DNA of 64,000 nucleotides from a virus (Duplodnaviria > Caudoviricetes). Below are positions 42,704-62,518 of the stretch, in pieces. The stretch lies in the IMG/VR virus record IMGVR_UViG_3300031555_001696; one strand, written 5' to 3'. The translations under genes were made by a program, and so were the position numbers. The notes beneath the pieces are model-generated. The model saw only the letters and a list, made by a program, of their open reading frames with translations. It was not told the DNA's origin and made no database searches. Every line of letters starts with the position of its first letter. The stretch's first letter is position 1.

Positions 42704-43231
42704 ATGAATTTAACGAAAGTAAGTAAATATCTGGCTTTAATTCTACGTCACAAGCCGGAAACTATTGGAATTACTCTAGATAAAAATGGTTGGGCCAATG
42801 TAAAGGATCTCATCAAAGGCGTAAATAAAACTTACAAGTTGGACATAGCTATGCTAGAGGAAATTGTTGCAACAGATGATAAGCAACGATATTCTTTCAA
42901 TGAAGACAAGACATTAATTCGTGCAAATCAGGGACATTCCGTGGACGTTGATGTTGAGCTAGAAGAGGCAGTACCTCCAGAATATCTGTGGCATGGTACA
43001 GGAACAAAGTACGTAGAGAGTATCAGAAAGACTGGTCTTATCCCTAATTCTAGGCTATACGTACATATGTCGGAGAGTTATATGACTGCAATGGATACTG
43101 GTGCCAGACATGGCAAACCTATGGTATTTTGCGTGAAAGCGGAAGATATGTATAACGATGGTTATAAGTTTTATAAGTCTAAGAATGATGTTTGGCTTAC
43201 AAAATTTGTACCAGTAGAGTATTTGGGTTGA
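42704..43231 (+). CDS. kptA: RNA 2'-phosphotransferase (Tpt1/KptA)
   Basis: SKYLALILRHKP, DKQRY, IRANQGHS, HGT and RLYVHMS motifs. Confidence 0.93.
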   Translation: MNLTKVSKYLALILRHKPETIGITLDKNGWANVKDLIKGVNKTYKLDIAMLEEIVATDDKQRYSFNEDKTLIRANQGHSVDVDVELEEAVPPEYLWHGTGTKYVESIRKTGLIPNSRLYVHMSESYMTAMDTGARHGKPMVFCVKAEDMYNDGYKFYKSKNDVWLTKFVPVEYLG

Positions 43232-43514: not shown

Positions 43515-44076
43515 TATATTAAAAGTTTAATTTTATGAGGTGACATATGCATTTAAGGTTTGTTGGAAAAGATAAATCAATGGGATTGTCTCGTGGTAGA
43601 GTGTATGATGTACGAATAAAAACAACAAATAACAATATTTGGGTTATAATTCCAAATATTCTTTTTGGTGCGTGGAAATGCCCGTATTCGTCTCCGCAAA
43701 GTTTTGCAGCAAATTGGGAGTCGGTATAAAAGATTAATTTTTAAGTAGGTGAAAGTAATGGAAAATACTTGTGTATGTTGTGGAGAAATCATTCCAGAGG
43801 GCATGCAGGTGTGCCATGCGTGTATGAGTGAAACTCCTATAGTTCCGCAGAGGCCGTATATGCAGTTTAATTGCCCGGAATGTGGAGCAAAACTGGAAGT
43901 ATGGTGCGATGCACTTGAGGATGAAACACCCGCAAAATTTGATAGTTTTTCATACGAGAAGCGGTATCTGATCAGACATTGTCGCAGTTGTGGATGTGAC
44001 TGGGAAAACGAGTGGTGGACTGAATGGGGCGATGTTGGCGAGTCGCAGTTGAGAAGAAAGTTTTGTGGATAAGAAG

Positions 44077-44895
44077 ATGAGTGATAAGTATACTTTATTT
44101 GCGTGTTCTGATATCCATAGTGCATATACACCGTGGATGAAAGCACTAAACGCAGCAGGATTTGATGAAAATAATCCTAAACATAAAATCGTAGTATGCG
44201 GAGATTTGTTTGACAGAATGGACGAATCCCTGCGGGTATATGATTTTGTTGAGGATATGTTGAAAAAGAATAAATTAATTTATATTTTAGGCAATCACGA
44301 AAGTCTGATGACAGAGTGTATTGAACGTGGTTATCCTGCTAGACACGATTGGAGTAATGGTACGGCAAAGTCTATCATTGACCTAGCTCCGCATGCAGAG
44401 AGTTTTTATGATGCATGTCATGTTGTATATGATAAAGTTACGCCTTTGTTTGAAAAAGCTGTAAATTATTTTGAAACTAAAAATTATATTTTTGTACACG
44501 GATGGATTCCGCTGACTTGTAAAGATAATTTACCTTATTATTATACTAGAAATAGAAAGTTTGAGTTTAATCCAGATTGGCGTCATGCACATTTCTCCGA
44601 ATGGGAACAAGCTCGTTGGCTAAATGGTATGGATATGGCGAGTAAAGGCTTGGTTGAACCTGGGAAGACTATAATTTGCGGACATTGGCATTGTAGTTAT
44701 GGACACTATATGCAAGCTATGAGAGACGCTATCGCTGCGGGAAATAGTGCTTTTGACGTTGAGATGGATGAATTTGGCGATACTGCAATTTGGGATCCTT
44801 ATTACGATGATGGTATTATTGCCATCGACAAGTGTGTAGCTTATACAAATGAAATCAATGTATTAAGGTTAGAAGACGAATTTTTGGAGGAATAA
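44077..44895 (+). CDS. Calcineurin-like metallophosphoesterase
   Basis: SDIHS, CGDLFDR, GNHE, FVHG and GHWH motifs. Confidence 0.9.
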   Translation: MSDKYTLFACSDIHSAYTPWMKALNAAGFDENNPKHKIVVCGDLFDRMDESLRVYDFVEDMLKKNKLIYILGNHESLMTECIERGYPARHDWSNGTAKSIIDLAPHAESFYDACHVVYDKVTPLFEKAVNYFETKNYIFVHGWIPLTCKDNLPYYYTRNRKFEFNPDWRHAHFSEWEQARWLNGMDMASKGLVEPGKTIICGHWHCSYGHYMQAMRDAIAAGNSAFDVEMDEFGDTAIWDPYYDDGIIAIDKCVAYTNEINVLRLEDEFLEE

Positions 44896-45961: not shown

Positions 45962-46051
45962 TATAATCCTAACAGTTCAAAATTAATGGAAGGCAACAAT
46001 GTTTGAGGGTTGCTGATGTCGGCTGGTGAGGTTCTGGTTGGCAAAGAATAA

Positions 46052-46126
46052 GGGCCCATAGCTCAAAGGAAGAGCTCCCGGCTCATAACCGGGTGGTTGC
46101 AATGTCAGGATTTGCTGGGCCCACCA
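46052..46126 (+). tRNA. tRNA-Ile2/Met (CAT), atypical T-loop
   Basis: GGGCCCA/TGGGCCC acceptor; CCCGG-CTCATAA-CCGGG anticodon arm; ACCA end. Confidence 0.75.
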
Positions 46127-46130
46127 CCAT

Positions 46131-46207
46131 GGCAACATAGTTTACGCTGGATAAAACATAGCCGTCCGAAGGCTAGAAAGATGGATCGTCACCATCTGTT
46201 GTCACCA
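46131..46207 (+). tRNA. tRNA-Arg (CCG), atypical T-loop
   Basis: GGCAACA/TGTTGTC acceptor; TAGCC-GTCCGAA-GGCTA; ACCA end. Confidence 0.75.
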
Positions 46208-46211
46208 ATTC

Positions 46212-46338
46212 GACCCGCTAGCTCAGTTGGTTCAGAGCACCGCCCTTTTGTCAGATGCAGGTTAGCTTCACTCAGTCCGATTCTGAGATCTGGTGCCAAA
46301 GGCGGGTGTCCTGGGTTCGAATCCCAGGCGGGTCACCA
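46212..46338 (+). tRNA. tRNA-Lys (TTT) interrupted by a 49-nt tRNA-like insert (46250-46298)
   Basis: Removing the insert gives a canonical 78-nt cloverleaf with CCGCC-CTTTTAA-GGCGG, TTCGAAT T-loop and ACCA end. Confidence 0.8.
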
Positions 46339-46430
46339 CTAAATTATTTGACAAAAGATGACTGCATATTAGAAACAACAAAATACAATAACATATCGCA
46401 TCATCGCAGATTTATCGCGAAGGTGATTAT

Positions 46431-47192
46431 GTGATTGGTATTTATAAAATTGAAAATTTGATAAATGGTAAAGTTTATATTGGTCAGTCAAGAAACATTG
46501 AAAAGAGGTGGACGGCTCATCGAACTAGACCATTTAATCAGAACTCAAAACAATATGATTTAGCGCTATATCGTTCTATTAGAAAATATGGGCTTGAAAA
46601 TTTTAGCTTTGTAGTTTTGGAAGAAACATTAATCGAAGATTTAGATAATAGAGAAAAATATTGGATTGAATATTATGACTCTCACAACAAAGAAAAAGGA
46701 TACAATTTGACGGATGGTGGTAACTCTGCAACGTCTACAATATTGACCAAAAAACAGGTTGATGAAATTAAACTTCTACTTGAAACAGATATGTCACAAC
46801 AAGATATTGCAGATAAATATAATGTTGATCAAAGGTCTATCAGTTATATAAATACAGGTGAAACTTGGATAGATCAGGGAAGAACATATCCTATTCGGTC
46901 ATTTTCAATATTGGCAAGCAACAAAAAATATTATTGTCAAAATTGCGGCAAAGAAATTGTAACAAAAAACGCTACTTTATGTGTTGACTGTTACAGTGCT
47001 TCTAGAAGAAAAGTTGATCGTGCTAGTCGAGATGAATTGAAACATTTAGTAAGAACAACATCATTTTTACAAATAGGAAAGATATACGGAATTTCAGATA
47101 CTGTAATTCGTAAGTGGTGCAGATCATATGGAATTCCATATAAACATAAAGAAATTAAATCTTATTCTGATGAAGAGTGGGATGAAATTTAA
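46431..47192 (+). CDS. GIY-YIG homing endonuclease in the tRNA cluster
   Basis: IGIYKIENLINGKVYIGQS...R...E...GYNLTDGG, followed by HTH and Zn-finger segments. Confidence 0.9.
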   Translation: MIGIYKIENLINGKVYIGQSRNIEKRWTAHRTRPFNQNSKQYDLALYRSIRKYGLENFSFVVLEETLIEDLDNREKYWIEYYDSHNKEKGYNLTDGGNSATSTILTKKQVDEIKLLLETDMSQQDIADKYNVDQRSISYINTGETWIDQGRTYPIRSFSILASNKKYYCQNCGKEIVTKNATLCVDCYSASRRKVDRASRDELKHLVRTTSFLQIGKIYGISDTVIRKWCRSYGIPYKHKEIKSYSDEEWDEI

Positions 47193-47247
47193 AAAACATA
47201 AATGTCATGCTTGGGCTTATTGCCGACTGAAAAATACAATCCTATAT

Positions 47248-47401
47248 ATCCCAGTAGCTCAGTCGAATAGAGCAACTGCCTTCGTCAACTTGGAGGAAAT
47301 GGAAACTCACTATCGCTAAGTAGATAGAGATTATTGGTTCAAGTCCAATAGTTGGCACCATAAGCAGTAGGTCACAGGTTTGAGTCCTGTCTGGGATACC
47401 A
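47248..47401 (+). tRNA. tRNA-Arg (TCT) interrupted by a complete nested 77-nt tRNA-like gene (47284-47360)
   Basis: Removing the insert gives a 77-nt cloverleaf: ATCCCAG/CTGGGAT acceptor, ACTGC-CTTCTAA-GCAGT anticodon arm, ACCA end. Confidence 0.82.
47284..47360 (+). tRNA. Nested tRNA-like element with an 8-nt anticodon loop (GCTAAGTA)
   Basis: GTCAACT/AGTTGGC acceptor, GAG/CTC D-stem, CTATC/GATAG anticodon stem, ATTGG-TTCAAGT-CCAAT T-arm, ACCA end. Confidence 0.75.
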
Positions 47402-47406
47402 AATAT

Positions 47407-47484
47407 GGCCCATTAGACAAGTTGGCTACAGTCACCAGCCCTTCACGCTGGAATTCGAGAGTTCGAATCTCTCATGGGTCACCA
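47407..47484 (+). tRNA. tRNA-Glu (TTC)
   Basis: GGCCCAT/ATGGGTC acceptor; CCAGC-CCTTCAC-GCTGG; TTCGAAT T-loop; ACCA end. Confidence 0.88.
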
Positions 47485-47709
47485 AATTCCAGACGACCGG
47501 AAAATCGGATGCCGGCATCTAACGATGTATGAGTGGAGTAATTCGTCACTCCTGGAATAATTAATTAAATTGCATTGATATGGGTGCCACGAAGCTCAAT
47601 AAGACGCCCTAAGAAAGGCGCAACGAGTTCCTGTGTATGGTAGTATTTACCGAACAGAGAAGCTGTGGTAAATGGAGTGAAATGAACAGCCCATATCCGC
47701 AATATATAT

Positions 47710-48610: not shown

Positions 48611-48682
48611 TGGGGAGTCGTCAAGCGGTAAGACATAACACTTTGACTGTTACATTCGGGAGTTCGAATCTCTCCTCCCCAG
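48611..48682 (+). tRNA. tRNA-Gln (TTG), no encoded CCA
   Basis: TGGGGAG/CTCCCCA acceptor; TAACA-CTTTGAC-TGTTA; TTCGAAT T-loop. Confidence 0.9.
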
Positions 48683-48683
48683 C

Positions 48684-48740
48684 GTTCTACATATTCCAAG
48701 CCTCCACGTGGCGTAGAATGGGTAATGCTAATTGGAATAT
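48684..48740 (+). ncRNA. Minimal HDV-like (theta) self-cleaving ribozyme at the tRNA-Gln 3' end
   Basis: P1 GTTCTAC/GTAGAAT (G.U first pair), P2 ATATTCCAA/TTGGAATAT, P3 GCC/GGC, L3 TCCACGT, GG for P1.1, J4/2 GCTAA. Confidence 0.85.
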
Positions 48741-49196: not shown

Positions 49197-49281
49197 AAAT
49201 ACCTCTTGACAAATCGAAAAATTTATGATATAATACAGACGCTTTAAAAGAAACAACACAAAATTAATGGAGGAATTAAAA

Positions 49282-49935
49282 ATGACTACTGAAAAGATGA
49301 CTGTACATCGCGCCCTGTCTGAACTCAAGGTAATTGATGATCGTATCTCTAAGGCGATCCGTGAAACCACCTATGTTTTAGCAGTTAAGCACTCTGCCGA
49401 AAAGATCAACGGCAAGACTGTTCAGAACTTCAAGGAAGATATGCGTAGCGGCTACCAGAAGGTTACCGATCTAATTGCTCGTCGTGATGCAATGAAGAGA
49501 GCGGTTGTGCTTTCCAACGCAACTACCAAGGTTACCATCGGTGGTAAGGAAATGACTGTGGCTGAAGCCATTGAACAACATAACCACGGAATGGAATTCA
49601 AGGCAGCTCTACTGCGCCAGATGAACTCTGCTTATGTTTCTGCTCAGAACGAACTGAACCGTAATGGTGGTGAGGCTCTGGAAAAGAAGGCAGAACAGTA
49701 TGTGCTAGCAGTGATTGCCGCACAACCCAAGGAATCTAAGATGTCTGTTGACAGCGATGTAATGAAGGCACTTCGCAAGACTTACATCGAGAACAATACT
49801 TATGATCTTGTAGATCCTATGGATATTGCAAAGGTCATTGAGGCTCTGGATGTTGAAATCAATGAGTTCAATGCAGAAGTTGACGCTGCACTAAGCTGCT
49901 CAAATGCACTAACTGTTATTGAGTTCGAGTATTAA
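49282..49935 (+). CDS. Helical/coiled-coil hypothetical protein upstream of a large ncRNA
   Basis: MTTEKMTVHRALSELKVIDDRI...EVDAALSCSNALTVIEF; own SigA promoter at 49206. Confidence 0.8.
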   Translation: MTTEKMTVHRALSELKVIDDRISKAIRETTYVLAVKHSAEKINGKTVQNFKEDMRSGYQKVTDLIARRDAMKRAVVLSNATTKVTIGGKEMTVAEAIEQHNHGMEFKAALLRQMNSAYVSAQNELNRNGGEALEKKAEQYVLAVIAAQPKESKMSVDSDVMKALRKTYIENNTYDLVDPMDIAKVIEALDVEINEFNAEVDAALSCSNALTVIEFEY

Positions 49936-49942
49936 GTAAACT

Positions 49943-50371
49943 AACTTGCTGCTTAACGAAAACTTTAAACGACTGCTTATCTCTTCTTTTTTAATCATTT
50001 AGAGTGATATTAATAAGGTAAAGAAAATGATTACTAATAGCCTTCAAGGCACAAGCCTGCTAAGCTTACTAAAAACAATGATCTTTTATGATGAGAAGAT
50101 TATTATTACAATACATAATATTATTGGATATGTATATTAATAATGAAATTGACTGTAAAGATTAACGTTAAAAGCTCAAGGTTTAAGGCTCAAGACTCAA
50201 GGTTTATTTTTAGTCAAAGGTCGTTCATTAAAGATATAAAGAGGGCTAAGAAATTTCGAATATTATTGTAATACGAATCGAGCCCACAAAGTTTTGCAAA
50301 ATCCACGATTATAGGTTTGGGTTAGTAGTCTAGGCCCTAAAGTTGACCTCGTGGCTGTTAAGTAGCAAGTT
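49943..50371 (+). ncRNA. Putative ~430-nt structured RNA with internal heptamer repeats
   Basis: 15-bp closing stem AACTTGCTGCTTAAC/GTTAAGTAGCAAGTT; seven tandem AANNNNN heptamers at 50157-50205; no ORF. Confidence 0.6.
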
Positions 50372-51142: not shown

Positions 51143-51217
51143 GCTGGTATAGCTCAGCGGCAGAGCGACGGATTTGTAATCCGTAGGTCGGGATCTCGGA
51201 ATTCCCTACCAGCTCCA
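51143..51217 (+). tRNA. tRNA-Thr (TGT), atypical T-loop
   Basis: GCTGGTA/TACCAGC acceptor; ACGGA-TTTGTAA-TCCGT; TCCA end. Confidence 0.82.
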
Positions 51218-55846: not shown

Positions 55847-56416
55847 GTGATAATTATGGGAAAGCAGTTTTATATTGCTGATTGGCATTATGGGCACGCA
55901 AATTGTATTGCATTTGACAATAGGCCGTTCAAGAATGTTCAAGAAATGAACGAAGAACTCATTGAGCGTTGGAATAAGGCTGTTACTGATTATGACACTG
56001 TCTATATTCTTGGTGATATGTTTTGGTGCAATTGGAAGGATGCACTACCTGTTTTGGACCAGTTACACGGTAGAAAGATCCTAATTAAGGGCAATCACGA
56101 CAGATGTAACGAAAGCCAGTTTGTAAAAAAGTTTAGTAAGATTGTGGATTATTTGGAGATTAAGGATAATGATCGCAATGTCGTTCTTTGTCATTATCCA
56201 ATTCCTTGTTTTAAGAATCACTTTTACGGCTGGTTTCATGCATATGGGCATGTACATAATTCTTTTGAAGCAAATATGATGGAACACAATAAATATCTAA
56301 TGGAAGAACTTTATGGCAAGCAGTGTCAAATGTTTAATGTCGGCGCAATGATGCCATATATGGACTATACGCCTCGAACTTTGGACGAGATTTTATCGGC
56401 ACAGGAGGATAAATAA
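55847..56416 (+). CDS. Calcineurin-like phosphoesterase
   Basis: ADWHYGH, LGD, GNHD, LCHYP and YGHVH motifs. Confidence 0.88.
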   Translation: MIIMGKQFYIADWHYGHANCIAFDNRPFKNVQEMNEELIERWNKAVTDYDTVYILGDMFWCNWKDALPVLDQLHGRKILIKGNHDRCNESQFVKKFSKIVDYLEIKDNDRNVVLCHYPIPCFKNHFYGWFHAYGHVHNSFEANMMEHNKYLMEELYGKQCQMFNVGAMMPYMDYTPRTLDEILSAQEDK

Positions 56417-57307: not shown

Positions 57308-58420
57308 ATGTACAAGCTTGAATTAAGAGACTTTATTCTGTCTCACGATAATTGGGAAGAACTTTTAACTGCAGAACCATATTATCTTAAGATTTCTCGT
57401 GATGACGGGTATATCATGTTTAAATATAATCAGGTGTTTTCTGATTTTAATATTCCTCTAGTTCGTGAATCACGAGGAATTATTTTCAGAGAAAGCGATT
57501 GGAAGTGTGTGTCTTATCCGTTTCGAAAATTCGGAAATTATGGTGAGTCTTATTGCCCCGAAATCAACTGGGAAACTGCATCTGTTCAAGAAAAAGTCGA
57601 TGGGTCATTAATTAAATTTTGGTATGATAACGGATGGCATATTTCCACTAACGGCACAATTGATGCGTTTAAGGCTAATCTAAACGATGTTAAGTATGAA
57701 AACTTTGGACAACTTGTTGCTACTGCAATTCATAAAGTATTTGAAGATGAGCACGATTTTTTCAACATGCTTGACCCAAAATGTACATATATGTTTGAAC
57801 TAGTTTCTCCATACAACCGCATAGTTATCCCGTATGAGGAAGTTAAGCTATATTTCTTAGGAATTAGAGATATGAACGATGGAGAGGAATGGAATCCAGA
57901 AGAGTCTGACCTGTCTATGTTTTTCTCTATCCCTAAGCGTTATCCTCTACATTCTCTGGAAGGTGTACAAAAAGCAGCAAATGCGCTTTCTTGGGACGAG
58001 GAGGGTTATGTAGTTTGCGATGCAGATTTTAATAGAGTTAAAATTAAAAGCCCATCTTACGTAATGGCTCATTACGTGCGTAATAACAACACTATTAATA
58101 CTGAGCGGTTAGTACATATTGTTCTTGATGGAGAGCAAGAAGAATTTCTAATTTATGCTTCTGACTATGCTGATGAGCTTCGTAACGTCGAGGATATTAT
58201 GCATAATATTGCAAGCAAGTCAGTTGAAAGTATGAAGATAATATTCGGCGCATCTTATGAATTTGCTAATCGTGGAGAATATGCACGAGAGGTAATGAAA
58301 TATCCTGCATATATGAAAGACTTCCTATTCCGTTGTTTTGATGATAAGATTTTCTGGGATTATGCAAAGAGTTGGAGTATAGATAGATGGGTTAAAGCTA
58401 TTAATGAATTTAAGGGATAA
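57308..58420 (+). CDS. T4 Rnl1-like RNA ligase
   Basis: ESRGIIF, PFRKFGN, EKVDGSL (motif I), FEL, EGYV and RVKIKS motifs. Confidence 0.88.
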   Translation: MYKLELRDFILSHDNWEELLTAEPYYLKISRDDGYIMFKYNQVFSDFNIPLVRESRGIIFRESDWKCVSYPFRKFGNYGESYCPEINWETASVQEKVDGSLIKFWYDNGWHISTNGTIDAFKANLNDVKYENFGQLVATAIHKVFEDEHDFFNMLDPKCTYMFELVSPYNRIVIPYEEVKLYFLGIRDMNDGEEWNPEESDLSMFFSIPKRYPLHSLEGVQKAANALSWDEEGYVVCDADFNRVKIKSPSYVMAHYVRNNNTINTERLVHIVLDGEQEEFLIYASDYADELRNVEDIMHNIASKSVESMKIIFGASYEFANRGEYAREVMKYPAYMKDFLFRCFDDKIFWDYAKSWSIDRWVKAINEFKG

Positions 58421-58712
58421 AAAGAAAATGAAACATAATGTTGTTAAATCTATGATTGGAGGAATTATTACTATGATTATAGCAATTTTGATAATTATTT
58501 GCGCACCCGCTTTTTATTATTTTGGCGGCTGGATTACAGGCCATCTGCTTAGCTGGTTTATCGGTGACATTGTTGTAGATGGTATGAACTATCTGTTTAA
58601 TACTACAAGATTTACAGTTGATATGTTGCCTACTATTTGTGGTACTCTTGGTGTAATTGGGTCTTTCTTTAAGAGTACAACTACGACAAGTTCTAAGAAG
58701 TAAGGTGATAAG

Positions 58713-59615
58713 ATGTATATCCCGAAGTTTATAATGATGGTAGGTTTGGTTGCGAGCGGCAAGTCTCATATGGCTCAAAAACTCGCTATCGAACACAATG
58801 CTACAATTTTTAGTTCGGATGAACTTCGAGAAGAAATGTTCAATAATGTCAACAACCAAGATCATAACCAAGAACTATTTGTAGAACTTCATAGGCGCAT
58901 CAAGGACTGTCTTCGTAGTGGTAAAAGTGCCATTATGGATTCTACAAACATTAACTACAAGCGTCGTATGGCATTCCTAGCTGAGCTTAAGAGCATTCCT
59001 TGTGAAAAGATTTGTGTGTTAATGGGAACTCCATATGAAGAATGTTTGAAGCGTAATGCTGAGCGTGAACGCAAAGTTCCAGAACATGTAATTTTAAGAA
59101 TGTATAGCAATTTTAACATTCCTTATTGGTATGAAGGTTGGGACGACATTAAAGTTGAATATGGTGTGTTTAAAGGTTATTATGGCAAACTAGCAAGTTG
59201 GTATAACAATTATAAAGATTATAATCAATACAATTCTCACCATACATTAACACTTGGAGAACATTGTTATAGGGCTGCATTAGAGTTAATTGGTAGCAAT
59301 TCTGTCACGTTAGTACGTGCAGCATGGATGCATGATAATGCGAAGCCAGAAACGGCAACATTTATCAACTCCAGGGGTGAGGTAACTACCGAATGTCATT
59401 ATTACAACCACCAATATGTTTCTGGATACAAGGCACTCCTATTTGATTATAGCAATCTATTGGATGTTGCGATTATTGTAATGTGGCATATGCAACCTTA
59501 TTTCTGGGAGAAAGATAATAATGAAAAGTTGCATAGTAAGTATCGTAAGTTATGGGGAGATAATTTGTATCAAGATATTATGCAACTCCATGCGGCGGAT
59601 AAATTGTGGCATTGA
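58713..59615 (+). CDS. Polynucleotide kinase (AAA_33) fused to an HD domain
   Basis: GLVASGKS, SSDELR, DSTN; C-terminal EHC..HDNAKP..HQYVS..HM..HAAD. Confidence 0.85.
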   Translation: MYIPKFIMMVGLVASGKSHMAQKLAIEHNATIFSSDELREEMFNNVNNQDHNQELFVELHRRIKDCLRSGKSAIMDSTNINYKRRMAFLAELKSIPCEKICVLMGTPYEECLKRNAERERKVPEHVILRMYSNFNIPYWYEGWDDIKVEYGVFKGYYGKLASWYNNYKDYNQYNSHHTLTLGEHCYRAALELIGSNSVTLVRAAWMHDNAKPETATFINSRGEVTTECHYYNHQYVSGYKALLFDYSNLLDVAIIVMWHMQPYFWEKDNNEKLHSKYRKLWGDNLYQDIMQLHAADKLWH

Positions 59616-59714: not shown

Positions 59715-60227
59715 ATGAAAACGCTAATTGTAGTAGACATGCAAAATGATTTTATTGATGCCGCACTTGGCACACCTGAGGCGCAGGCAATAGTACCTAA
59801 CGTTAAAAAGAAGATTGCAGAATATGACGCTCGTGAAGACGCAATTGTTTTTACACGAGACACCCATTTTGAAGATTATCTTGAAACGAATGAAGGCAAG
59901 AACCTTCCTGTTAAGCATTGTATTATGGGAACTCATGGTTGGCAGATTGCAGATGACCTAGAAGTACCTTGTGCTAGATATCTAAATAAGCCTACTTTTG
60001 GTTGGCTTGGTTGGAAGTCATTTGATTTTGAAGACGATGATGAAATTGAACTAGTTGGTCTTTGTACTGATATCTGCGTGGTGTCTAATGCACTAATTCT
60101 AAAGGCAATGTTCCCTGAAGTTAAGATTACAGTGGACGCAAGTTGCTGTGCAGGCGTTACTCCTGAAAGTCATAAGGCGGCACTGCAGACTATGAAGATG
60201 TGCCAGATTAATGTTATTGGAGAGTAA
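59715..60227 (+). CDS. pncA: Nicotinamidase / isochorismatase-family hydrolase
   Basis: VVDMQNDF, TRDTH, HC, KPTFG and GLCTDICV motifs; first gene of the NAD operon. Confidence 0.8.
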   Translation: MKTLIVVDMQNDFIDAALGTPEAQAIVPNVKKKIAEYDAREDAIVFTRDTHFEDYLETNEGKNLPVKHCIMGTHGWQIADDLEVPCARYLNKPTFGWLGWKSFDFEDDDEIELVGLCTDICVVSNALILKAMFPEVKITVDASCCAGVTPESHKAALQTMKMCQINVIGE

Positions 60228-60230
60228 ATT

Positions 60231-61037
60231 ATGATTAAGTTAGATGGTAAAATAGTGCACCAAGAGCATTTTCCAGACAATTCGCTGAGAATTGAACCAA
60301 TCAATGACAATAGTTTCGATCTATCTTTTATGGGAATGACATCAATTCCTAAAAGAATTACTTGGCACTATGAAAGCGATGCTGAATTGTTCACTGTAAT
60401 TTGTCTAAGAAAGCATTTTGCAAATAAGGAAATGATTTTGGAAATGCCTTATTGTCCGCACGCTCGCATGGATCGAGTAAAGAACAACAATGAATTCTTT
60501 ACACTAAAGCATTTTGCAGACGTCATTAATAGTCTTGACTTCTCTGAGGTAAAAATTTATGATCCTCACAGCAATGTATGTACTGCGCTAATTAATAATG
60601 TAAAAGTAATACCTACATATAATGAGGTTCAAAAAGCTCTTAAGACAATTGGCTCAACCAATTTAGTTGCATTTTATCCTGATGAAGGGGCCATGAAGCG
60701 TGGCACTAGCTATTTGACTGGAGCATATGCGTTTGGTATTAAAAATCGTGATTGGCAGACCGGTAAGATTTTAGGACTAGAGCTAATAAATAAGGAAGTT
60801 GTAAATGCGAGAGATGTTTTGATTATTGATGATATCTGTTCTCGTGGAGGTACATTCCTACATTCTGCTAAGGCACTCAAAGAAGCCGGTGCCAGAAAAA
60901 TTTACCTGTACGTAACTCACTGCGAAAATACAATCCTGGATGGTGAGCTACTTACCAGCGGCCTAATTGAAAAGGTATACACAACAAATAGTATTTTTAC
61001 CAAAGGACATGAAATGATTGAGGTATTCGAACTATGA
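60231..61037 (+). CDS. Ribose-phosphate pyrophosphokinase-like protein (possible ADPR-PP synthase)
   Basis: MPYCPHARMDR, DPHS, PDEGAMKR, IIDDICSRGGTF and VTH motifs. Confidence 0.85.
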   Translation: MIKLDGKIVHQEHFPDNSLRIEPINDNSFDLSFMGMTSIPKRITWHYESDAELFTVICLRKHFANKEMILEMPYCPHARMDRVKNNNEFFTLKHFADVINSLDFSEVKIYDPHSNVCTALINNVKVIPTYNEVQKALKTIGSTNLVAFYPDEGAMKRGTSYLTGAYAFGIKNRDWQTGKILGLELINKEVVNARDVLIIDDICSRGGTFLHSAKALKEAGARKIYLYVTHCENTILDGELLTSGLIEKVYTTNSIFTKGHEMIEVFEL

Positions 61038-62518
61038 CAATTAATATTATGATGATGCTTTTTTCGGATACATATAAGCACACTCATCCTCGTATGTATC
61101 CTCGTAAAGAACCATTTAAAATGAAGAAGCTAGTTTCTTATTTAACAGCACGTAAGAATATGTCCCCTGCATTTCCTACAATGGTATTTGTTGGTATGCA
61201 GCCATTTCTAATGAATTATCTTATTGATGGTTTCAACAATCAATTCTTTGATCGGCCTTTGTGTGATGTAGAAGCAGAATATAAGCATTACATGGACATC
61301 CAGGTTGGTGTTGCTAATGTTGAGTGGGATGAAATTGCAGCACTACACGAACTTGGCTATTTGCCTCTTGAGATTCGTGCTTTACCTGAGGGCTCTGTGG
61401 TAAACATGGGTATTCCTGTGGTTGAAATGACTAATACTCATCCCGATTTCGCATGGGTTGTTCAGTGGGTTGAATGTATTTTGCAGGCTGAACTGTGGGC
61501 TCCCTGTGCATACGCAACTATCGGCAAGGCGTATCATGAGCTAGCTGATAAGTACTATAAGGATACCACAGATGGCGCTGACCCCTTCATGGCCATGGCA
61601 GACTTCGGTATGCGTGGCATGTCTTGTATCGAGGATTCTATTCGAGCATCTGCATCGTGGCTGCTAAGTTTCAACAAAACTTCCACTATTCCCGCTCTGC
61701 CGTATATTGATAAATATTATCATGCTGATTGTGCAAAAAATGGTATTGGACGTGGCGCTGTCTCTACGGAACATTCTGTCATGGGTGCCAACTTCGCTAT
61801 CGATGGCGATGAGATCACTTTCGTCAAGAGACTACTAACCGAACTCTATCCTAATACATCTTTCTCTATGGTATCCGATACATACGACTACTGGAATATG
61901 GTCAACAATATTATTCCTGCTTGTAAGGATGAAATCATGGCACATAATGGTAAACTGTTAATTAGACCCGACTCTGGTGATATGCTCACTATTTCTATTC
62001 GTACCATTGAGAAGCTGTGGGAAGTATTTGGAGGCAGTATTAATGCTAAAGGCTATAAGGAACTTGATCCTCATATTGGCCTGATTTATGGTGACGGTTG
62101 TACATTGAACCGTGTAGCTGATATTTATCGAACTCTTAAGGAACGTGGCTTTGCAGCGAATAATGTCGTGTTTGGCGTTGGAGCCTTCTGTTTCCATGCC
62201 ATGTTTGATGTTGGCGGCAAAATGACCGTTATTACACGTGATACTTTTGGTATGGCGATGAAGGCTACATACGGTGAATTTGGTGACAAGAAGTTGTTTA
62301 TCTATAAGGATCCAAAGACCGACGAAGGTAATCTAAAGAAAAGTCATAAGGGATGTTGTATGGTTAGAATGGACAACAAAAACGGTAGATATTTGTGTAT
62401 GGACAAATTCGAAGGTTGGGTTCCTGATCATATGACAGCCCTGGAGACGGTCTTTAAGGATGGTAAGATGATTAAGAGCTATGACTTTATGGACATTCGG
62501 AGGAGAATGTATGGTTAA
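61034..62518 (+). CDS. NAMPT/NadV-family phosphoribosyltransferase (possible Namat)
   Basis: SDTYKHTH, DFGMRG, STEHSVM, SDTYD, IRPDSGD, IYGDG and KDPKTD motifs. Confidence 0.9.
   Translation: MTINIMMMLFSDTYKHTHPRMYPRKEPFKMKKLVSYLTARKNMSPAFPTMVFVGMQPFLMNYLIDGFNNQFFDRPLCDVEAEYKHYMDIQVGVANVEWDEIAALHELGYLPLEIRALPEGSVVNMGIPVVEMTNTHPDFAWVVQWVECILQAELWAPCAYATIGKAYHELADKYYKDTTDGADPFMAMADFGMRGMSCIEDSIRASASWLLSFNKTSTIPALPYIDKYYHADCAKNGIGRGAVSTEHSVMGANFAIDGDEITFVKRLLTELYPNTSFSMVSDTYDYWNMVNNIIPACKDEIMAHNGKLLIRPDSGDMLTISIRTIEKLWEVFGGSINAKGYKELDPHIGLIYGDGCTLNRVADIYRTLKERGFAANNVVFGVGAFCFHAMFDVGGKMTVITRDTFGMAMKATYGEFGDKKLFIYKDPKTDEGNLKKSHKGCCMVRMDNKNGRYLCMDKFEGWVPDHMTALETVFKDGKMIKSYDFMDIRRRMYG

Follow-up and report, generated by a model that had tools for sequence, protein, structure and literature searches.

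tRNA-shaped sequences interrupting the anticodon loops of two phage tRNA genes

Can a tRNA gene that carries a second, tRNA-like gene within its anticodon still yield a tRNA? This question is raised by the tRNA cluster of an uncultured phage of the animal gut (Caudoviricetes; IMG/VR record IMGVR_UViG_3300031555_001696), of which a stretch of 64,000 nucleotides, referred to here as the window, was analysed. A preliminary description of this DNA had pointed to a complete 77-nt tRNA-like gene in the anticodon of tRNA-Arg(UCU), and it had proposed a new type of intervening sequence that is excised by ordinary tRNA-processing enzymes, the halves being sealed by the RNA ligase and the polynucleotide kinase of the phage.

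Two interrupted genes and the ends of their inserts

The interrupted Arg gene reads ATCCCAG TA GCTC..GAGC A ACTGC CTTC, then the 77 nt, then TAA GCAGT AGGTC ACAGG TTTGAGT CCTGT CTGGGAT A CCA, which places the insert between anticodon positions 35 and 36 (Table 1). The Rfam tRNA model matches 47248-47398 with 50.4 bits and a single 81-nt insertion in the anticodon loop. When the gene is aligned to the uninterrupted orthologues of two related phages (L001 and L002), the gap covers exactly 47284-47360. No stem pair is lost from the exons; relative to L001, the anticodon stem and the T stem show compensatory changes, and the unusual T loop TTTGAGT is common to both. The sequence, the Rfam model and the orthologue alignment thus bear out the earlier placement of a 77-nt cloverleaf between positions 35 and 36 of an otherwise intact tRNA-Arg.

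The insert itself is called 'tRNA-???' with a 2-base anticodon by ARAGORN. It has a 7-bp acceptor stem with one G-U pair, a D arm with GG, the T arm ATTGG/TTCAAGT/CCAAT, the 3' end ACCA and a 5-bp anticodon-type stem, which is capped by an aberrant 8-nt loop, GCTAAGTA. The view of the insert as a complete inner tRNA therefore stands for the full cloverleaf from G1 to CCA, but not for decoding: the loop is not one of 7 nt with U33 and an assignable anticodon, and we rejected a decoding tRNA on this ground. Among the members of the insert family the pseudo-anticodon arm is variable or missing.

A second split gene, absent from the preliminary description, is that of tRNA-Lys(UUU) at 46212-46338; the Rfam tRNA model matches 46212-46335 with 53.9 bits and a 52-nt loop insertion. 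Here the insert lies between positions 36 and 37 and consists, in this order, of GTCAGAT, a 14-nt linker, the T arm CTCAG-TCCGATT-CTGAG, ATCTGGT, G and CCA. When it is taken out, the loop CTTTTAA is obtained, and every stem pair of the outer gene is intact. In the structural scan described below both inserts have 7/7 acceptor pairs, 5/5 T-stem pairs and NCCA, and the nested helices are present in the minimum-energy folds of the Arg and the Lys precursors.

Table 1. Features of the window and of related phages (window coordinates unless a record is named).
Feature	Location	Strand	Remarks
Tpt1/KptA RNA 2'-phosphotransferase	42704..43231	+	PF01885 5.5e-47; just upstream of the tRNA cluster
Metallophos	44065-44895		
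tRNA-Lys(UUU) exon 1	46212..46249	+	ends CCGCC CTTTT (positions 32-36)
tRNA top-half insert in Lys gene, 49 nt	46250..46298	+	acceptor/T-arm minihelix
tRNA-Lys(UUU) exon 2	46299..46338	+	AA, GGCGG, variable loop, T arm, acceptor 3' strand, A, CCA
GIY-YIG homing endonuclease gene	46431..47192	+	between the two split tRNA genes; PF01541 8.2e-9; phrog_7168 1.1e-37
tRNA-Arg(UCU) exon 1	47248..47283	+	acceptor 5' strand, D arm, ACTGC, loop CTTC (positions 32-35)
tRNA-shaped insert in Arg gene, 77 nt	47284..47360	+	G1 to A-CCA, full cloverleaf
tRNA-Arg(UCU) exon 2	47361..47401	+	TAA (positions 36-38), GCAGT, variable loop, T arm, acceptor 3' strand, A, CCA
Metallophos_2	55847-56416		
T4-type RNA ligase 1 (Rnl1), candidate sealing enzyme	57308..58420	+	phrog_562, 2c5u
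Polynucleotide kinase fused to HD-like C-terminal half	58713..59615	+	AAA_33 2e-23
Insert in tRNA-Thr(UGU), L004			site 34/35; insert 73 nt
Insert in tRNA-Pro(UGG), L013			site 35/36; insert 63 nt
Insert in tRNA-Asn(GUU), L014			site 35/36; insert 79 nt
Insert in tRNA-Asn(GUU), L012			site 35/36; insert 121 nt
drum RNA	L002 6547-6657; L006 13189-13300; L008 13965-14071; L010 14761-14871; L012 14319-14429		RF02958

The exact ends of such inserts were examined by a scan for acceptor stems of 7 bp that directly adjoin a T arm of 5 bp; once the candidate was removed, ARAGORN was further required to recognise a tRNA in which the junction fell within a loop of 7 nt. The unbiased set comprised the window and records L001-L015 (287 kb), and any 3' tail was allowed. 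The 19,530 structural candidates of this set gave seven ARAGORN-validated calls: five true nested cases, one register shift of a true case and one poor tRNA-Val. The last one (L013 12963-13020) has no CCA and was discarded as a false call. The true cases are the Arg and Lys genes of the window together with the Thr gene of L004, the Pro gene of L013 and the Asn gene of L014, and each of the five spans exactly from base +1 of the 7-bp acceptor stem to NCCA. An NCCA tail in 5/5 true cases, compared with a CCA tail in 319 of the 19,530 candidates, excludes chance for the nested cases. Exact removal leaves in all five a 7-nt loop and an anticodon that matches synteny or a missing isoacceptor; together with the orthologue gap, this boundary rule confirms that exact removal from the Arg gene restores the loop CTTCTAA, as had been described.

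The conservation of the inner elements is that of tRNA. Invariant across nine of them are U8, A14, G53, U54, U55, C56, A58, C61 and CCA, which are universal tRNA positions, and in the window-family elements, which are independent of the motif scan, T54, C56, R57 and A58 occur in 6/6 and U55 in 4/6. Pairing is found in 99.1% of the cells of 12 stem pairs and changes on both sides in 11/12 pairs, values that are partly circular, as pairing was a selection criterion. The middle part of the elements ranges from nothing up to a long hairpin. With model R1 the Arg insert reaches 60.2 bits, a score that is not independent, since the insert is among the nine sequences from which R1 was built. The model misses the 49-nt Lys insert, detects no free-standing copy of the element in the window and, below about 48 bits, does not separate inner elements from ordinary tRNAs.

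Neither outer gene is called by ARAGORN in its ordinary mode. With the intron option the two genes are read as Trp (CCA) and Met (CAT), and neighbouring tRNAs are also fused; this mode misplaces ends and is therefore unfit for setting insert boundaries. Standard tRNA finders miss or mis-assign split genes, so phage tRNA inventories and codon-supply analyses are biased, and the rule that an insert runs from +1 to CCA allows a simple annotation fix.

Metagenome contigs support the reality of both genes. More than 90% of the sampled words of a 10-kb stretch were found in six animal-faeces metagenome runs, and the whole nested Arg gene is bridged with zero differences by contigs of two runs that carry no flag as a possible source of this DNA (X4 record 4, 737 nt; X6 record 13, 651 nt). 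The Lys insert is also bridged by metagenome contigs. Since independent contigs bridge both nested genes, they are not an assembly chimera, an explanation that the preliminary description had asked to be checked. The same data supply alleles without inserts. Similarity to abundant tRNA-Arg contigs of other organisms ends exactly at 47283, and a bovine-gut contig (run X8, record 29) reads ACTGCCTTC joined to TAAGCAGT, followed by the next tRNA-Glu, at about 92% identity; judged by this junction, it is an intron-less Arg allele in a relative. Immediately ahead of 46299, run X7 has contigs with ..CACCGCCCTTTT, the sequence of a tRNA-Lys that is not interrupted. The intron-less alleles among the metagenome contigs break or join exactly at 47283/47361 and 46249/46299.

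A family of inserts and its place among known introns

Relatives were gathered from IMG/VR and ENA assemblies with the metallophosphoesterase gene 44065-44895 as anchor. This gave nine distinct related phages, each with a syntenic tRNA cluster, on contigs that reach about 150-175 kb, and in 9/9 of them the Lys(ttt) and Arg(tct) genes stand uninterrupted in the same places. Inserts of this kind are present in Thr, Pro or Asn genes of four relatives (Table 1). Having considered that the Arg case might be a one-off insertion with decay of the outer tRNA, the preliminary description also called for a search for split phage tRNAs whose insert ends in CCA: the four relatives have like inserts, the exons of the window have lost no pair, and scanning IMG/VR for a motif, together with a covariance model, revealed further nested Ile, Gly, Asn, Leu, Gln, Lys and Glu genes in other large phages. 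In total there are at least 16 nested genes from different phages, and exact removal gives a perfect 7-nt loop in all of them. No cultured relative was detected by blastn against phage records, in which 47150-47560 had no match and a 20-kb stretch had only a tRNA-Met match.

Two of the inner elements, L064 10591-10665 and L134 1316-1394 (minus strand), have the same acceptor stem (GTTAGAT/ATCTAAC) and the same T stem (ATAAG/CTTAT), and they reside in a tRNA-Asn gene in L064 and in a tRNA-Glu gene in L134. Identical element stems in two different outer genes suggest that the element moves between tRNA genes. As far as can be read from sequence, then, both genes of the window are interrupted by a mobile family of tRNA-shaped intervening sequences that occupies tRNA anticodon loops of large phages.

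The closest precedent comes from the Lak megaphages, for which 'enigmatic' tRNA introns were reported (Devoto et al., 2019, Nat Microbiol, PMC6784885, Fig. 4; preprint 10.1101/356790). In their tRNA-Thr UGU the anticodon-loop insert is itself a predicted tRNA, and presence or absence among related genomes defines its boundaries (PMC6784885). The likeness to the window is twofold: a phage tRNA gene, intact in all else, has a tRNA-like insert in its anticodon loop, and related genomes without the insert set exact boundaries. The Lak phages are Prevotella megaphages of about 540 kb with the insert in tRNA-Thr, whereas the family of the window has about 150-175 kb and the inserts of the window are in Arg and Lys; moreover, the Lak paper (PMC6784885) is without a boundary rule, a minihelix form or a mechanism. 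Our literature search found no mechanism for tRNA-shaped tRNA introns beyond Devoto et al. (2019). On these resemblances we assign the inserts to a barely described class of introns for which the Lak phages provide the precedent. The earlier claim of a new type of intervening sequence is weakened by this precedent. The window contributes two cases in one cluster, with the full-cloverleaf and the minihelix forms side by side, and to the class a nucleotide-exact boundary rule from an unbiased scan, intron-less metagenome alleles and a negative result on association with ligases.

Group I introns, such as those of cyanobacterial tRNA-Leu UAA and of tRNA-fMet, resemble the inserts in that they occupy the anticodon loop of a bacterial-type tRNA and are sporadic and mobile-like. 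However, they are ribozymes of at least 200 nt with a P1-P9 core, whereas the inserts of the window have 49-77 nt. A group I intron was rejected after an Rfam scan of 46000-47500 at E<=10, in which the inserts gave only tRNA matches and no Intron_gpI. The broader idea that the inserts are self-splicing or self-cleaving RNAs, e.g. a minimal ribozyme, draws on the fact that the known bacterial and phage tRNA introns are group I ribozymes, and on a weak HDV-like match elsewhere in the cluster (48684-48739). Against this, the inserts of 49 and 77 nt are far below group I size, neither of them matches any Rfam ribozyme or intron model at E<=10, and their conserved part is the top half of a tRNA; we consider such a ribozyme highly improbable. 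Given the length of 49-77 nt and the lack of a ribozyme model match, protein enzymes must act on the inserts.

Small introns at or beside the anticodon loop are also known from archaeal and eukaryal tRNAs, where removal depends on proteins and the exons are rejoined by an RNA ligase. The fungal route of tRNA splicing uses an Rnl1-related ligase, a kinase and Tpt1. Archaeal and eukaryal introns canonically lie at 37/38 in a bulge-helix-bulge, in contrast to the phage inserts, which lie at 34/35 to 36/37 and are tRNA mimics ending in CCA. A tRNA splicing endonuclease of the archaeal or eukaryal kind is not known from bacteria or from phages. A bulge-helix-bulge intron was rejected by inspection: on either side of the 7-bp acceptor helix, the junctions consist of 4-5 and 2-3 loop bases that are unpaired. 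A different likeness is offered by mitochondrial tRNA punctuation and by MALAT1 mascRNA, in which a tRNA-shaped element in a longer transcript directs cuts by RNase P and RNase Z. The flanks are not religated in those systems, whereas in the window they are the two halves of another tRNA.

The outer tRNAs and a possible route of removal

The inserts are probably removed at the RNA level, as the exons are intact and the exons of a same-site pair have evolved by compensatory changes. This pair consists of L012 and L014, with inserts at the same Asn site 35/36: between the outer acceptor stems there are two double-compensatory pair differences, and covariation is also seen in the inner stems. The tRNA cluster of the window has no Arg(UCU) or Lys(UUU) gene other than the split ones; in the long ORFs of the window, AGA makes up 47% of the Arg codons and Lys 8% of all codons.

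The split genes could also be young pseudogenes, with an inner element that is either a selfish mobile tRNA-like sequence or the sole useful product, freed by RNase P to the loss of the outer tRNA. The closest relatives found all lack both insertions. Additionally, exact or degenerate patterns of the Arg and Lys insert copies had no match in IMG/VR and JGI metagenomes, and a looser exon-1 pattern hit nothing beyond ordinary tRNA-Arg(TCG) genes, truncated half genes that resemble att sites, and chance matches. With no diverged copy of the two insertions of the window, they could be recent and still have to stand the test of selection. The homing endonuclease genes that crowd the tRNA cluster, the mobility seen in the shared element stems of L064 and L134, and the fact that Arg and Lys tRNAs can come from the host also speak for decay. 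However, all stem pairs of both outer genes are intact, the outer tRNA with a shared insert in L012 and L014 evolved by compensatory changes, the nested genes of different phages (at least 16) all give a perfect 7-nt loop, and the phage has no further copy of these two tRNAs, which no relative has lost and which serve codons in heavy use. Thus we regard pseudogenes as rather improbable compared with removal from the RNA.

How might this removal proceed? After transcription of the whole gene, outer cloverleaf and inner tRNA mimic would each fold on their own. A cut by RNase P 5' of the inner base +1 would leave exon 1 with a 3'-OH, and a tRNA 3'-end endonuclease acting just behind the inner CCA would give exon 2 a 5'-phosphate. 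The second cut could be made by an enzyme of the RNase Z/BN type that cuts after CCA, or by another enzyme; the Thermotoga maritima enzyme of this type is reported to cut after CCA, but with many RNase Z enzymes CCA is inhibitory or the cut falls behind the discriminator. Base pairing would hold the halves together as a tRNA with a nick in the anticodon loop. Nicked tRNAs of this kind are the natural substrate of T4-type Rnl1, and the Rnl1 of the phage would seal the halves. The predicted exon junctions are ..ACUGCCUUC^UAAGCAGU.. with the loop CUUCUAA for Arg and ..CCGCCCUUUU^AAGGCGG.. with the loop CUUUUAA for Lys.

Both inserts have the features of an RNase P substrate: an acceptor stem of 7 bp is stacked on a T stem of 5 bp with its T loop, and the 3' end is RCCA. 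Avoidance of N(-1)/N73 pairing, which would have spoken for RNase P site selection, is not seen by eye at the insert starts. Since the ends of the inserts (+1 and CCA) are the ends made by tRNA end-processing, the anatomy fits cuts by RNase P and by a 3'-end enzyme. The route as a whole, in which mobile tRNA-shaped inserts are removed by RNase P, a cut after CCA and Rnl1, seems to us a serious possibility that falls just short of being probable. More tentatively, one could speak of a third, ribozyme-free way of tRNA splicing in viruses that infect bacteria, in which a tRNA mimic is excised at +1 and CCA and a T4-type ligase reseals the exons; we lean slightly against so general a statement.

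The candidate sealing enzyme is well recognised. Its gene product matches phrog_562 (2.7e-51, residues 31-349) and the structure of T4 Rnl1, 2c5u (3.8e-18), with KvDG aligned to KeDG of the KxDG motif; PF09511 stayed above E 0.01 with the protein of the window, but it is a precomputed assignment on close homologues. Rnl1 is a core gene of the phage family, with 2649 homologues at E<=1e-40, and Rnl1 homologues are linked to the L013 and L004 records. The kinase half of the second enzyme is closest to the kinase domain of C. thermocellum Pnkp (4gp7, 6.7e-10). Its C-terminal half contains HHTLTLGEH..MHDNAK, which by eye is HD-like, and is not the phosphatase domain of T4 Pnk. Sealing by both enzymes had been suggested for the region 57308-59615; the two genes are indeed present, but ends of the RNase P/RNase Z type carry a 3'-OH and a 5'-phosphate, and the kinase would therefore not be needed. 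T4 Pnkp and Rnl1 offer the obvious comparison: they seal a break in the anticodon loop of tRNA-Lys(UUU), and the window encodes a homologous ligase and kinase. The T4 break, however, is made by PrrC, a host defence nuclease, in a mature host tRNA, whereas the break in the window would come from the removal of the insert from a phage pre-tRNA.

A census of ligases covered 15 IMG/VR records, seven with a nested tRNA and eight without a detected one. A clear ligase of the Rnl1 or Rnl2 type is present in 5/7 of the former, and 6/8 of the latter have a ligase. G007, a 99% complete genome with a nested tRNA-Glu, has no match to PF09511, PF09414 or phrog_562; G001, also nested-positive, has only a sub-threshold Rnl5-like ORF; RtcB is absent in the five carriers tested. 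We thus found no enrichment of RNA ligases in the carriers of nested tRNAs (5/7 versus 6/8, none in G007): ligases are common with or without inserts, and their co-occurrence does not discriminate. For the proposal that tRNA-processing enzymes excise the insert, the outcome is therefore mixed: the insert ends match those of end-processing, but co-occurrence of ligases gives no discrimination and one carrier shows no ligase match. The further suggestions, that the insert controls timing or shields the anticodon, are speculative.

RNase P-type ends would need neither healing enzymes nor Tpt1, and this keeps another explanation alive. A dedicated endonuclease of the phage or the host could leave a 2',3'-cyclic phosphate and a 5'-OH, with the tRNA shape as its recognition handle, and splicing would follow the heal-and-seal way of fungi: the kinase/HD protein and the metallophosphoesterases would heal the ends, Rnl1 would seal them and Tpt1 would clear the 2'-phosphate from the junction. 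In favour of it, the window has a full RNA-repair kit near the tRNA cluster (Tpt1, Metallophos, Metallophos_2, Rnl1, kinase/HD and NAD salvage), and if the cuts were of the RNase P/Z type, neither Tpt1 nor the healing enzymes would have a part in splicing. On the other hand, no candidate endonuclease was found, the exact boundaries from +1 to CCA would have no obvious reason with another nuclease, and the partner of the kinase looks by eye like an HD domain and not like the 2H cyclic phosphodiesterase that makes a 2'-phosphate. Besides, such repair kits are explained, in T4-like phages, as a defence against host anticodon nucleases. We consider this explanation unlikely. Two observations on the kit may be added: the window has Tpt1 yet no evident phage step that makes a junction 2'-phosphate, and the NAD salvage genes, at 59715-62518, are those of a nicotinamidase, a PRPP-synthetase-like protein and NAMPT.

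If the route through RNase P, a cut after CCA and Rnl1 is true, tRNA splicing by universal end-processing enzymes and a repair ligase would be a new logic for the bacterial world. It would also provide a physiological substrate for phage RNA ligases and give Rnl1 a housekeeping role in splicing beyond the repair of damage. Perhaps a splicing role would be found for Tpt1 as well; the natural substrates of bacterial-type Tpt1 are a long-standing puzzle.

Other elements of the tRNA cluster

The GIY-YIG gene lies between the two split tRNA genes, the same kind of place as that of segB in T4. Its enzyme might cut intron-less alleles, i.e. act by 'collaborative homing'. GIY-YIG or HNH genes are also found inside the tRNA clusters of L006, L008 and L014.

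Several other RNA elements were noted in the cluster. The HDV-like match at 48684-48739 (HDV-F-prausnitzii, 27.9 bits against a gathering score of 44) directly follows tRNA-Gln 48611-48683, a position in line with the published 'theta' ribozymes 3' of gut-phage tRNAs. A match to a RAGATH-27-like RNA at 49945-50033 (47.9 bits, below the gathering score of 76.1) comes right after ORF 49267-49935. Two tRNA-like genes, 46052-46123 and 51143-51214, score 49.1 and 54.4 bits with Rfam and are missed by ARAGORN; CAT is the anticodon of one, whose T loop has 9 nt, and TGT that of the other, whose T arm is aberrant and whose CCA is not encoded. In relatives, a drum RNA is kept within the tRNA cluster (71-82 bits; Table 1), and none is reported in the cluster of the window. 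Finally, L010 10001-11320 (P0019) and similar homologues of the anchor metallophosphoesterase, 437-439 aa in length, carry fused NUMOD4/HNH_3 endonuclease domains.
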